A stretch of DNA of 60,845 nt, from NCBI GenBank assembly GCA_016209085.1, contig JACQWV010000010.1:1-60845 (forward strand). The letters are read 5' to 3'. Source of the stretch: Elusimicrobiota bacterium. Lineage in GTDB: Bacteria; Elusimicrobiota; Elusimicrobia; Elusimicrobiales; UBA9959. Made by a program: the position numbers and the translations under genes. The notes beneath the pieces are model-generated. The model ran no database searches. It saw nothing but the letters and a program-made list of their open reading frames with translations, and was not told where the DNA came from. Shown one piece after another: positions 1,811 through 52,121 of the stretch; the stretch's first letter is position 1; every line of letters begins with the position of its first letter.

Positions 1811-1935
1811 CCCCGTTAGAGACAGGTCGTGCTTGCACGACCGTGCTTTGTTTCAGAGCTTTTGTCTGAACTTTCATAATTTAAACGTTTTCAGCATTTG
1901 TAATCGACGCTTTCACCAGTGTGTCTCTAACGGGG
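1811..1935. mobile_element. MITE-like element, family 1 (terminal inverted repeat CCCCGTTAGAGAYA), intergenic copy
   Basis: 125 nt. It has 14-nt terminal inverted repeats (ccccgttagagaca / tgtctctaacgggg) and an internal perfect hairpin ggtcgtgc-tt-gcacgacc. It is about 80% identical and colinear with 29187-29311, and is flanked by ttta / tttac. Confidence 0.8.
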
Positions 1936-27134: not shown

Positions 27135-28601
27135 ATGTTCAAAGATATACAGGTTCTGGGAAAAGAATCTCTCATATACGGTCTTTCCACGGTTATCGCG
27201 AGGCTTTTGAATTTCATCCTCATGCCTTTTTACACCCATTACCTGGCGCCCGGGGAATACGGAATTATCGCAGCTGTTTATTCCTACATCGCTTTCCTCA
27301 ACATAATCTATCACTATGGAATGGACCAGGCTTACATGCGGCATTTTGAGGAGAAGGAAAAAGCTTTTCCTTCTTCGTTTGTTTGCCTGATTTTGAGCTC
27401 TGCGCTTTTTTCAGGCGCGTTAGCTCTGAATCCGGTTTTTTTCGCTAAAATCTCGGGCATAGGCGGGGAATATTCAAAATTCATGCTTTATTCGGCCGCT
27501 ATTCTCTTTCTGGATACCCTGACCGTAATTCCGTTTGCGGATTTAAGAATGAGACATAAGGCTTTTTATTTCGCAAACGTCAAAATCATGGGCATCGTCC
27601 TGAACGTGATTTTAAACGTAATGTTCATAAAATACATGGATAAAGGAATTGAGGGCGTGTTTCTGGCGAATCTGGCGTCTTCCGCGGTTTCCGCCGCAAT
27701 GCTTTCAAACTATTTTGCAGACATAAAATTCAAAATTTATCCCGACGTTCTTAAAAAACTTCTGCATTTCGCCCTGCCTCTGCTGCCGGCGGGCCTCAGT
27801 TCAATGGCAATTCAGGTGATAGACAGACCCCTGCTTTTGTTTCTGGCCGACAAGACTTCGGTGGGGATTTACCAGGCGAATTACAGGCTCGGGATATTCG
27901 TCATGCTTCTGGTGGTGATGTTTGACCAGGCATGGAGGCCGTTTTTCATTGAAAGGGCGGACAGGACTGACGCAAAACGGATTTTCGCGAGAGTCTTCAG
28001 TTATTTCGCCGTTATTCTCGTATGGATTGTTCTTGCTCTGTCGTTTTTTATTTCAGACATCGCAAAATTTGAAATCAGGAATACCCCTTTGATTCATCCC
28101 GGATACTGGAGCGGAATCGGGATTGCGCCCGTGGTTTTTGTCGCTTATCTGTTCAACGGCTTTTACATAAATTTCCTCGCCCCGGTCATAATTTCAAAAA
28201 GGACGGGGTTTTTGTTCGTAATTTCCATTGCAGGCGCGGCCGTAAGCGTGATTTCCAATTTGATTCTTATACCCGTTCTTAACATATACGGCTCCGCTAT
28301 TTCAACATTGCTGTCTTATGTCACGATGGCCTCATTAGCGTATCTGGCAGGCAGAAAGCTTTACAGCATACCGTACGAATTTAAAAGGATTTTTAAAATT
28401 GTAGTTATAACTTTTGTCCTTTTAACGCCGGTTTTATTTCTGGAATTAAATGCCGGAGCGTGGTCTCTTTACCGTACAGGCGTTTTAACGATTTATCCGT
28501 TTCTGATTTTTTTCAGCGGATTCTTTGACGACAGAGAAAAAGAGCAAATCCGGAGTTTACTGAGGATTATTTCGTCTGCTGGAGTTCGCCGAAGAATTTG
28601 A
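27135..28601 (+). CDS. MOP-superfamily polysaccharide/oligosaccharide flippase (Wzx/MurJ-like)
   Basis: About 488 aa and polytopic. The N-terminus is typical (LGKESLIYGLSTVIARLLNFILMPFYTHYL). The ATG at 27135 is preferred over the TTG at 27117. Confidence 0.7.
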   Translation: MFKDIQVLGKESLIYGLSTVIARLLNFILMPFYTHYLAPGEYGIIAAVYSYIAFLNIIYHYGMDQAYMRHFEEKEKAFPSSFVCLILSSALFSGALALNPVFFAKISGIGGEYSKFMLYSAAILFLDTLTVIPFADLRMRHKAFYFANVKIMGIVLNVILNVMFIKYMDKGIEGVFLANLASSAVSAAMLSNYFADIKFKIYPDVLKKLLHFALPLLPAGLSSMAIQVIDRPLLLFLADKTSVGIYQANYRLGIFVMLLVVMFDQAWRPFFIERADRTDAKRIFARVFSYFAVILVWIVLALSFFISDIAKFEIRNTPLIHPGYWSGIGIAPVVFVAYLFNGFYINFLAPVIISKRTGFLFVISIAGAAVSVISNLILIPVLNIYGSAISTLLSYVTMASLAYLAGRKLYSIPYEFKRIFKIVVITFVLLTPVLFLELNAGAWSLYRTGVLTIYPFLIFFSGFFDDREKEQIRSLLRIISSAGVRRRI

Positions 28602-29445
28602 TTCCTATAAAAGTGGTAAGAACGGCAAAAAATCCCACCGCTGTAATGTTTGTGTATGCCGAAAAATTTCCGTATCCCAGGAGAATCCTCCTGACCATGT
28701 CAACCGCGTAGGTCATCGGGTCAAAAAAACTTATTGTTTTAATGACCGGGCTCGTTCCTGAAATTTCAAAAAGCGCGCCGCTGAAAAAAAACATGGGCCA
28801 GGTGAGAAAACTCATTACAAGCCCGAATCCTTCCATGCTCTTCATCCTGGCGCCTATTGAAAGGCCGATGTTGGCGACCATGTATGAAACCGGTATCAGC
28901 CACAAAACGCACAGGAGAAACTTCCACAAAGGGACCGGAAGAATGAAAAAATACCCTATCAGAAGGACAATCACGACTTCTATCATGGCTCCGGTGATTC
29001 CGCCTATTGATTTTCCCATAAACAGGCTTGTTCTTGAAATCGGGGCCACGAGCACTTCTTTCAGAAAATCCAGTCTTTTGTCCCAGATTATGTAAAGCCC
29101 GTAGGTTATTGAAGTGAAAAGACATACCATAACCAGAATCCCCGGAAAGATGAACTGCTGGTAAGTATAACCCTGAACCGGGCTTGCCCCGTTAGAGATA
29201 GGTCGTGCTTGCACGACCGTGCTCTGTAATGAGTCTTTTGTTTGACCTTCTATAATTTGAATGTTTTCAGCATTTTTAATTGCCACTTCCACAGGTGTAT
29301 CTCTAACGGGGTTTGCCCCTGTGCCGATGCTCCTTCCGATGACAAACAGAAATAAAAGCGGGGAGACAAGAATTGAAATTATCCTTTCTTTTTCCCTGAA
29401 AAAAATTTTAACTTCCCTCAAAAGTATGGCGTATATTCCGTTCAT
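28567..29445 (-). CDS. ABC-2 type transporter permease
   Basis: 292 aa and 6 TM segments, translationally coupled to the upstream ATPase gene by a 4-nt overlap. A family-1 MITE is inserted in the first external loop and is read through in frame. Confidence 0.8.
   Translation of the reverse strand: MNGIYAILLREVKIFFREKERIISILVSPLLFLFVIGRSIGTGANPVRDTPVEVAIKNAENIQIIEGQTKDSLQSTVVQARPISNGASPVQGYTYQQFIFPGILVMVCLFTSITYGLYIIWDKRLDFLKEVLVAPISRTSLFMGKSIGGITGAMIEVVIVLLIGYFFILPVPLWKFLLCVLWLIPVSYMVANIGLSIGARMKSMEGFGLVMSFLTWPMFFFSGALFEISGTSPVIKTISFFDPMTYAVDMVRRILLGYGNFSAYTNITAVGFFAVLTTFIGIKFFGELQQTK
29187..29311. mobile_element. MITE-like element, family 1, copy inserted in frame in the ABC-2 permease gene
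   Basis: ccccgttagagata...tatctctaacgggg, 125 nt. Adding a 4-nt flank duplication (cttg/tttg) gives 129 nt, or 43 codons. It is translated as ..NPVRDTPVEVAIKNAENIQIIEGQTKDSLQSTVVQARPISNGAS.. Confidence 0.8.
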
Positions 29446-30413
29446 TTATTTGTTTTCACCGATACTATTCTTTCAAAAATAGTGTCTTGCGATTCTTCGT
29501 TTTTTATCTCATGCCCGGTAAATTTCAAAAAAACGTCCTCAAGAGTCACGGGCCTTATTTCAACCCTGTCTATTTCTCCCGCGTGTTTCAAAAGAACCGG
29601 CAGATTGTCTGCAGCGTCCATAACCGTGATTTCAGCCTTGCCGTTTCCGGCATGAACGCTTTTTATGAAATTCAGGCCTTTAAGAGCTTCAATCTCTATA
29701 GTTCCTTCAAGAATAACTATGTCTCCCCCTACTTTTCTCTTGAGTTCCTCCGGACTTCCCAACTGAACTATTCTTCCATGATCAATTATTCCTATCCTGT
29801 CGCAGAGAAAATCCGCTTCTTCCATATAATGAGTGGTCAGAATTATCGTGATATCTCCGGTTTCCGAGAGGTTCTTGACGTAATTCCAGATTATTTTTCT
29901 GGCAGCTGGGTCCAGGCCGAGAGTCGGCTCGTCAAGAAAAAGGACTTTTGGCTGGTGCAGAAGCCCGCGGGCTATTTCAAGCCTTCTTCTCATTCCGCCG
30001 GAATAGGTTTTTACGAAACTATCCGCCCTGGCGGACAAACTCACCAGTTCCAGCATTTCAGAAATGCGTTTTTTCCGTTCGTCTCTGGCCATCCCGTAGA
30101 GCATTGCGTGAAGCTCCAGATTTTCCCTGCCTGTCAGAAGGTCGTCAACGCTCGGCTCCTGAAAGACTATTCCTATGTTTTTCCTGACCTGAAGGGAATC
30201 ATTAGAGACTTCAATGCCCGCCACCCACGCTCTTCCCGAGGTCGGTTTTAAAAGAGTGCTGAGCATGCTGATGAAAGTGGTTTTGCCCGCGCCGTTCGGG
30301 CCCAACAGGCCGAAAACCTCGCCTTTCGGAATGTCAAGGCTGATTTCATTTACTGCGATAAGACCGTCAAATCTTCTGGAGAGTTTTTCAGTGTGGATTA
30401 TTAAGGAGGGCAT
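29442..30413 (-). CDS. ABC transporter ATP-binding protein (DrrA/CcmA-like exporter ATPase)
   Basis: Walker A GPNGAGKTT, signature YSGGMRRRLEIA and Walker B LFLDEPTLGLD. Confidence 0.95.
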   Translation of the reverse strand: MPSLIIHTEKLSRRFDGLIAVNEISLDIPKGEVFGLLGPNGAGKTTFISMLSTLLKPTSGRAWVAGIEVSNDSLQVRKNIGIVFQEPSVDDLLTGRENLELHAMLYGMARDERKKRISEMLELVSLSARADSFVKTYSGGMRRRLEIARGLLHQPKVLFLDEPTLGLDPAARKIIWNYVKNLSETGDITIILTTHYMEEADFLCDRIGIIDHGRIVQLGSPEELKRKVGGDIVILEGTIEIEALKGLNFIKSVHAGNGKAEITVMDAADNLPVLLKHAGEIDRVEIRPVTLEDVFLKFTGHEIKNEESQDTIFERIVSVKTNK

Positions 30414-38642: not shown

Positions 38643-38834
38643 ACAGGGATATTATATACTTTCAACTGAATGGTGCGATGTGGCCCGCTTGGAGTGAGTG
38701 TCGGATTACCCTCTTTCGCCAAAGCTTCAGATGGGCAGGCCGTCAATTCATTCTGCTTCGCCGCGTCGGTTTTGTCGCGGCTTTGCAGGAATAGATTCCT
38801 ACGAAGCGCTGCCCCGTTAGGGACAGCGCGAAGT

Positions 38835-48882: not shown

Positions 48883-48953
48883 CCCCGTTAGAAATAAGCC
48901 GCCCCGAGGCGGCTGTCGCCGTGCCCAAAGGGCAGGGCGGATTTCTAACGGGG
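48883..48953. mobile_element. Short variant sharing the family-1 termini (CCCCGTTAGAAAT...ATTTCTAACGGGG) with a different GC-rich core
   Basis: 71 nt, flanked by ttta / tttac like copy 1811-1935. The core forms hairpins gccgcc-ccga-ggcggc and tgccc-aaa-gggca. It sits between convergent glpK-like and trxB. Confidence 0.7.
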
Positions 48954-51692: not shown

Positions 51693-52121
51693 TTACTTCG
51701 TCTCTACAACATTTTTGGGGGATGATGGTTTCTTCCTGTGGCATGATTTCACTGGTTGGCGAAAGGTACGGCTGTCTTGTTCTCCCGTCGAACTCACATT
51801 AGCTGGAATGAATGGTTTAACACATTGTTTAGTAAGAATAATTTCCTCTTTCTTGGAGCGAGGCATCGCTTTAATCTGTGCTTCTTGGATTAGGGCTTTG
51901 GAATGCGTCAAACCCTCTTGCTGAAATAATAGATTTACCGGCAAGCGAGTTCTGGTATATGTCGCCCCTTTGCCATTATTGTGCTGTTTTAACCGCGCCT
52001 CGACATCTTTCGCTATCCCCGTGTAAAGCGATCCGTCCCCGCAACAGAGAATATAGACTGACCATTCCCGTTTGCGGCCTTTTTTCATTCCTCGGATCAT
52101 TTTCAGATATTTTGGATTCAT
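51693..52121 (-). CDS. GIY-YIG nuclease family protein (UPF0213/YhbQ-like core with a basic tail of about 50 aa)
   Basis: [62 protein letters not shown]. Confidence 0.85.

Follow-up and report, generated by a model that had tools for sequence, protein, structure and literature searches.

Rickettsia palindromic elements (RPE) are palindromic repeats of about 100-150 bp that sit in frame in unrelated housekeeping genes, and each RPE family encodes a conserved peptide, which becomes joined to the host protein (PMC10969869). Other short repeats, such as Correia/nemis, RUP, and ERIC, are classical bacterial MITEs that come from DDE insertion sequences (PMC10969869). As well, single-domain GIY-YIG genes of about 100 aa or less, termed Ssn, have been described as flanked by inverted hairpin-forming NTS/SRM repeats (PMC11893778). 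The SRM repeats also have many gene-less copies in genomes, and the authors likened this architecture to that of an insertion sequence (Chenal et al. 2025, PMC11893778). Cleavage of single-stranded DNA and an effect on transformation were shown in the Ssn paper, while mobility was not (PMC11893778).

The element described here lies in a 60,845-nt stretch of DNA (the window, contig C4) of a groundwater Elusimicrobiota bacterium, whose assembly consists of 2.35 Mb in 140 contigs and is 98% complete. Similar to RPE, it is short, belongs to elements that were repeatedly inserted in frame, and carries a family-specific peptide, which is a functional resemblance. Unlike RPE, these elements are found in another phylum with a free-living groundwater habit, they have sharply defined ends and 4-bp duplications, several size classes have a common end sequence although their cores are unrelated, and there is a candidate gene-carrying partner. 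The element is, by analogy, an RPE-like in-frame MITE, the likeness being one of function. With its terminal inverted repeats (TIRs), its short target-site duplication (TSD) of fixed length, its small size, its multiple copies, the lack of a mobility gene of its own, and occasional in-frame intragenic copies, it also resembles classical bacterial MITEs. In contrast to those, no DDE partner with these ends was found here, and the gene-carrying relatives are about 280 bp long and encode a nuclease of a superfamily that is not known to transpose.

A first-pass annotation, made from the letters of the window, described a 125-nt MITE with 14-nt TIRs lying in frame in an ABC-2 permease gene, and this description holds (Table 1). 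The element is bounded by ccccgttagagata and tatctctaacgggg, which form a perfect inverted repeat, and the permease frame crosses it over 43 codons without a stop. The perfect hairpin named in the same annotation was also located, and the colinear copy that had been put at about 80% identity measures 83%. This second copy directly abuts the stop codon that closes an 84-aa ORF. Its right TSD (TTTA, 1936-1939) includes that stop, TAA on the minus strand, which fits a T-N-N-A target often coinciding with stop codons.

Table 1. Coordinates of the element, its host operon, and related elements in the window
Feature	Position	Strand	Basis or remark
ABC-2 type transporter permease gene, 292 aa including 43 inserted (45-87)	28567..29445	-	Pfam ABC2_membrane, E 1.2e-26
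Partner ABC ATPase gene, intact	29442..30413	-	stop overlaps permease start
125-nt non-autonomous element (MITE)	29187..29311	.	TIRs, ~20 genome relatives, absent in orthologues
Left terminal inverted repeat ccccgttagagata	29187..29200	+	sequence
Right terminal inverted repeat tatctctaacgggg	29298..29311	+	sequence
Subterminal perfect hairpin ggtcgtgc-tt-gcacgacc (8 bp)	29201..29218	.	sequence, fold
Target-site duplication, left: CTTG (gene strand CAAG)	29183..29186	+	equals single orthologue copy
Target-site duplication, right: TTTG (gene strand CAAA)	29312..29315	+	one substitution compared with left
Second copy of the 125-nt family, TSD TTTA	1811..1935	.	between ORFs; one stop in the frame used by the permease
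71-nt element, ends CCCCGTTAGAAAT, TSD TTTA	48883..48953	.	GC-rich two-hairpin core; same superfamily

Folded as a single strand, the 125-nt element pairs its two ends (z -4.98), and the 71-nt element of the window reaches a z of -8.99. Relatives in sister genera carry an equivalent GC hairpin at the same end, with a different sequence. An Rfam search and a terminator scan of the 125-nt element returned neither Rfam families nor terminator-like sites, and an intron, ribozyme, or terminator within the element was rejected for this reason.

In the window, the end 12-mer CCCCGTTAGAGA occurs seven times with at most one mismatch, compared with 0.17 expected, and none of 100 shuffles reached seven. 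A solo end-like 12-mer with one mismatch, CCCCGTTAGGGA, lies at 38812-38823, and its partner end is absent within 150 nt. Throughout the 2.35 Mb of the assembly, 53 elements of at most 150 nt with CCCCGTT...AACGGGG ends were counted. Their end consensus CCCCGTTAGA[AG]A, with the variant CCCCGTTCCAAA, bounds several size classes, of which those of 71, 74, and 125 nt are abundant and each have a length of 2 mod 3. The 71- and 74-nt classes contain a GC-rich two-hairpin core, and a 73-nt class as well as minimal forms of 25-41 nt also occur. The 125-nt family has about 20 copies in the genome, which are 70-95% identical and mostly located outside genes.

Verification of the duplications over many copies, which had been proposed as a check, gave exact 4-bp TSDs for 30 of the 53 elements, whereas shuffling the flanks among elements gave 5.9 on average and 14 at most. 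For the permease copy, the flanks cttg and tttg and the added length of 129 nt stand as first annotated, but the suggested TTTR target does not, the target given by all copies being T-N-N-A (Y-N-N-R), with a consensus of T(74%)-N-N-A(77%). By copy number, 38 of the 53 elements in this genome have a length of 2 mod 3. This length was rejected as a general law, because a hand tally of the distinct size classes in seven genomes of the family came to about 12:8:8, and it is presented here as a survivorship filter for intragenic copies.

The comparison with permease orthologues bore out the insertion. Besides the window permease, 119 homologues were listed, with lengths of 249-267 aa save one of 302 aa, in which the surplus is an N-terminal extension. 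The inserted segment is absent in all 41 aligned homologues, the 302-aa protein among them. The two closest orthologues are 81% identical and 249 aa long, which equals 292 minus 43, and their DNA presents the empty site: both read ...GCAAG(C/T)CC... once, where the window reads GCAAAC-element-GCAAGC. The single CAAG in these orthologues indicates that a target CAAG (gene strand) was duplicated and that the upstream copy was later changed by one base. A protein search found no near-identical permease allele, the next match being 81% identical, and an empty-site allele was not found over 28700-29800 in the contigs of four groundwater runs, a kind of data in which rare variants are dropped. The groundwater-run contigs break inside the repeat, and none of their joints bypasses the element. 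For a 79-nt unitig that is specific to this copy, the depth equals that of the flanks, which argues against a mis-join. The data support 29187-29311 as a real insertion, in keeping with the earlier interpretation.

In the permease, the inserted residues are N45-A87, and the minus-strand reading is PVRDTPVEVAIKNAENIQIIEGQTKDSLQSTVVQARPISNG. The 125 nt of the element and one 4-nt flank make 129 nt, or 43 codons, and thus the downstream frame is kept. An AlphaFold2 model of the permease, built with 40 sequences, has a mean pLDDT of 79.9; the transmembrane core (residues 95-292) scores 80-97, while the insert scores 44-59 and is modelled as a low-confidence loop between helices 19-41 and 95-121. 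The N-terminus of the permease contains five Lys/Arg within 21 residues, so that, according to the positive-inside rule, the enlarged loop should face outward. The net charge of the 43-residue insert is about -1. We infer that the permease tolerates this enlarged outer loop. The preference for a tolerated over an inactivated transporter is one of analogy, and it is favored by nineteen other read-through insertions, several of which lie in essential genes.

Altogether, 20 of the 53 elements are read through in ORFs of at least 140 aa, and Pfam domains back most of these ORFs as real genes. They include Mfd/TRCF, Obg, PheT, Ham1, a MiaB-like radical-SAM enzyme (two insertions), and AnmK, as well as a phosphopantetheinyl transferase (PPTase), a histidine kinase, an NlpC/P60 peptidase, an O-antigen ligase-like protein (Wzy_C), and others. 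In 19 of the 20, the length of the element is 2 mod 3, which together with the 4-bp duplication preserves the downstream frame. Among the other 33 elements, removal restores a long ORF in at most two, while 72% of random positions fall in long open frames; disruptive insertions are therefore rare, and the copies that survive inside genes are those that preserve the frame. Insertions that would break a gene appear to be purged. The one clear disruptive candidate is a 131-nt relative of the 125-nt family at C82:12289-12419, the removal of which restores a 463-aa frame. At C138:2295-3752, separate elements of 74 and 77 nt lie in frame in one MiaB-like radical-SAM gene, 100 nt apart, and the gene is still open.

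It had been proposed to check whether the element is free of stops in the permease frame more often than expected, and all four intragenic 125-nt copies (in the permease, AnmK, PPTase, and an unassigned 358-aa ORF) were found in one shared orientation and frame, which is the sole reading that is usually stop-free in the 125-nt family. They share the common peptide [PS][VI]RDTPV...QARP[VI]SNG. Of the four open readings available to the 71- and 74-nt classes, two, PVRNPPCPKGTAAA...SNG and PLEIS...GGFLTG, account for 11 of 12 intragenic copies, and the Arg-rich readings are nearly absent. The 125-nt copies in anmK and in the PPTase gene are 81-87% identical and older, and these genes are still open.

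The first-pass annotation had proposed a search with the TIR for an autonomous parent carrying a transposase. The ends indeed proved to be common to about 50 elements of the genome and to bound gene-carrying units elsewhere, but the likely parent, as predicted from sequence, is a unit of about 280 bp that encodes a small GIY-YIG nuclease and no classical transposase. Five small GIY-YIG genes are present in this genome. One of them occupies a 281-bp unit (C38:30369-30649) made of CCCCGTGAAATAA, an 84-aa GIY-YIG ORF, and TTATTTCACGGGG, with the stop codon TGA in the flank, and the ends of this unit are the MITE ends minus two bases. The C38 protein matches Pfam GIY-YIG with 54 bits and is 33% identical to an Ssn-like paralogue in the same genome. 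Within C38:30369-30660, 5 nt separate the end of the unit from the ATG of the following ORF, which starts with MRTDIHPRYG and which we take, by eye, to be ribosomal protein L31-like. A GIY-YIG unit with exact CCCCGTTAGAGA ends was not found in this assembly.

On C140, the GIY-YIG gene has the repeat of the 73-nt family, TTTGGAAACGGGGG, at its end. In this region (C140:8883-9257), a 73-nt element with ends CCCCGTTCCAAAT and the TSD CGTG lies directly behind the 3' end of the GIY-YIG mini-gene and just upstream of a tRNA gene, and the nuclease ORF now reads on through the inserted element. The window itself contains a GIY-YIG domain gene (51852-52064, minus strand; Pfam 57.8 bits) inside a 163-aa open frame, and since it lacks CCCC...GGGG ends it is not the partner of the element. 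Two further small GIY-YIG genes, at C113:23780-24067 and C122:1827-2045, have flank motifs resembling Ssn/SRM repeats (GTCATTGCGAGG and GGAATGACA), and a second nuclease-and-repeat system probably coexists in this genome.

Units of this kind are widespread. In species-representative genomes, the pattern CCCCGTTAGA-N245-275-TCTAACGGGG (265-295 bp) matched at least 120 stretches, and the matches listed span many phyla, including Omnitrophota, Patescibacteria, Nitrospirota, Planctomycetota, Bacteroidota, and Elusimicrobiota. Among the matches listed, 86 of 121 units (71%) encode a GIY-YIG ORF of 84-93 aa that is homologous to the C38 protein, and in 45 of these 86 a stop codon comes right after the terminal GGGG. 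The flanks of the GIY-YIG units, again among the matches listed, are exact duplications in 25 of 86 and TTCA...TAAA in 20 of 86; such unequal flanks are not accounted for by simple cut-and-paste with a 4-bp duplication. In ten units from other phyla, the ORF starts at the ATG of the flank (ATGAA directly before CCCCGTTAGA), so that the nuclease begins with MNPVR..., and these units read the inverted repeat in the same frame as the host genes with intragenic MITEs.

The relationship between the units and the gene-less elements was followed in the bacterial family of the window, in which a GIY-YIG hit is present in all seven genomes with at least four such MITEs, compared with 10 of the 73 others, a co-occurrence that is not an independent test because the MITE-rich genomes are kin. 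One sister genus has a degraded GIY-YIG gene with CCCGTTAGAGATAC, an end as in the 125-nt family, in front of it. In sister genus g5, MITEs of about 120 nt have interiors that resemble the 5' coding part of that gene, with a score reached by only 0-1 of 1000 shuffles, which indicates that these MITEs are deletion derivatives of a GIY-YIG unit. The 125-nt family of the window and the sister-genus MITEs have a conserved block at a shared offset (p <=0.008), and a TGCTGA[AG]AA block has the same offset (40-48) in the 125-nt family and in the GIY-YIG gene. Between the 125-nt interior and the GIY-YIG gene, the similarity is weak, with 19-22 of 45 positions identical at zero shift where other shifts average 12, and local alignment gives a p of about 0.12. 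An nhmmer search of the genome with a profile of the 86 gene-carrying units recovered the units on C38 and C140 but no MITEs. In a search of a GIY-YIG ORF profile against six-frame MITE translations with decoys, the 125-nt peptides of this genome did not rise above the decoys, and one sister-genus MITE alone passed them. With this protein-profile test negative, the 43 residues are not claimed as a relic of the nuclease N-terminus.

Several other explanations of the locus were weighed. It is barely conceivable that the permease has the 43 residues as an ancestral or lineage-specific loop, or that the junction is an assembly artefact at a repeat. The breaks of the public-run contigs inside the element would suit an artefact, but both flanking contigs run into the element, the copy-specific unitig stands at flank depth, and each flank contains one half of a single gene. 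As for an inherited loop, it is opposed by the 70-95% DNA identity to about 20 copies that are scattered over the genome and mostly lie outside genes, by the TIR ends and the target duplication, and by the lack of the segment in every aligned homologue. Unlikely, though to be taken more seriously, is the view that the insertion has just inactivated the transporter, leaving the permease gene as a young pseudogene without further damage yet. The copy is 95% identical to two others and thus too young for decay to show, a short and well-conserved loop has been made four times as long by the insert, and AlphaFold2 gives no confident structure for the insert. However, the permease frame is unbroken, its start still overlaps the ATPase gene, and its transmembrane core is intact throughout, nineteen other elements are read through in genes including pheT, obg, and mfd, the older copies lie in anmK and PPTase genes that have stayed open, and with at most two elements looking disruptive, insertions of that kind appear to be purged. 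A tolerated insertion is preferred here.

The nature of the mobilizing enzyme allows another alternative, namely that these are ordinary MITEs whose parent, a DDE-type insertion sequence with the same ends, is unassembled or lost, the GIY-YIG gene being a passenger or a settled homing nuclease; we regard this as quite unlikely. DDE_Tnp_1 and rve transposases are present in the genome on short, truncated contigs where their ends are not visible, a strand transfer by GIY-YIG would be without known precedent, and 35 of the 121 long units among the matches listed have no GIY-YIG hit. Yet no CCCCGTTAGA-like end was found on the eight transposase contigs (DDE_Tnp_1 and rve, four loci each, the contigs being truncated). 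Moreover, among the matches listed, 71% of the 265-295 bp units share one tiny gene, with the stop at the boundary in 45 of 86; a unit of this length leaves no room for a transposase; and deletion derivatives of the GIY-YIG gene have multiplied as MITEs in sister genera.

Our preferred account, which we consider probable as a whole, is that the 125-nt element inserted at CAAG between transmembrane helices 1 and 2, was tolerated, and was mobilized in trans by a GIY-YIG nuclease. The element entered a CAAG tetranucleotide in the codons of the short loop between these helices, and duplication of 4 bp brought the added DNA to 129 nt, with the frame kept and 43 extra residues (45-87) now encoded. 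A small GIY-YIG nuclease of about 84-93 aa may move the elements; among the matches listed, the only gene-carrying elements with these ends are the units of about 280 bp that encode it. Such a nuclease would probably recognize the paired ends and make 4-nt staggered cuts, and the 4-nt gaps would then be filled by host repair. Relatives in the Ssn family cleave hairpin repeats in single-stranded DNA (PMC11893778). As for the 125-nt family, either it may have lost its mobility by now or the related C38 unit may cross-mobilize it.

Like Ssn, the units described here consist of a small single-domain GIY-YIG gene between inverted repeats, and these repeats also occur in gene-less copies. In contrast, the present consensus is CCCCGTTAGA... 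as compared with the Ssn repeat CGTCATTCCCGCG...GCGGGAATC, and the present ends, CCCCGTTAGAGA or CCCCGTGAAAT, depart from the NTS/SRM consensus (published NTS CGTCATTCCCGCGMAVGCGGGAATCYRG). Furthermore, the present repeats are the termini of discrete elements with TSDs and exchangeable cores, and many copies are intragenic. A literature search found no description of bacterial TIR-bounded, target-duplicating elements tied to a GIY-YIG gene. Judged from sequence, the element and its probable GIY-YIG partner are probably a new variant of mobile element, with a mechanism that is so far a prediction. To our knowledge, GIY-YIG enzymes are nucleases and not strand-transfer enzymes, with no strand-transfer precedent, and we know of no autonomous transposon smaller than about 280 bp.

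As both the filled and the empty site are in hand, the single insertion forms a clean natural experiment, in which 43 residues from mobile DNA now form part, in frame, of a predicted outer loop, the transporter gene being intact in all other respects. More weight attaches to the picture across the genome than to this one case. In-frame colonization of housekeeping genes across a genome, best known from Rickettsia, is here found in a free-living member of another phylum, and the elements point to a partner that has not been recognized as a transposase. We put forward tentatively, as a possibility short of probable, that the GIY-YIG unit of about 280 bp is a true autonomous transposon, the gene-less derivatives of which are shaped for survival in coding sequence and feed peptide insertions into proteins across many phyla. 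If so, this shaping would consist of a length of 2 mod 3 combined with the 4-bp duplication, of stop-free frames, and of ends that read PVR...SNG or PLE...LTG. If the nuclease does move the elements, this would be a new and very compact mechanism of prokaryotic transposition, and it would provide a function for a large group of "hypothetical" GIY-YIG mini-genes.
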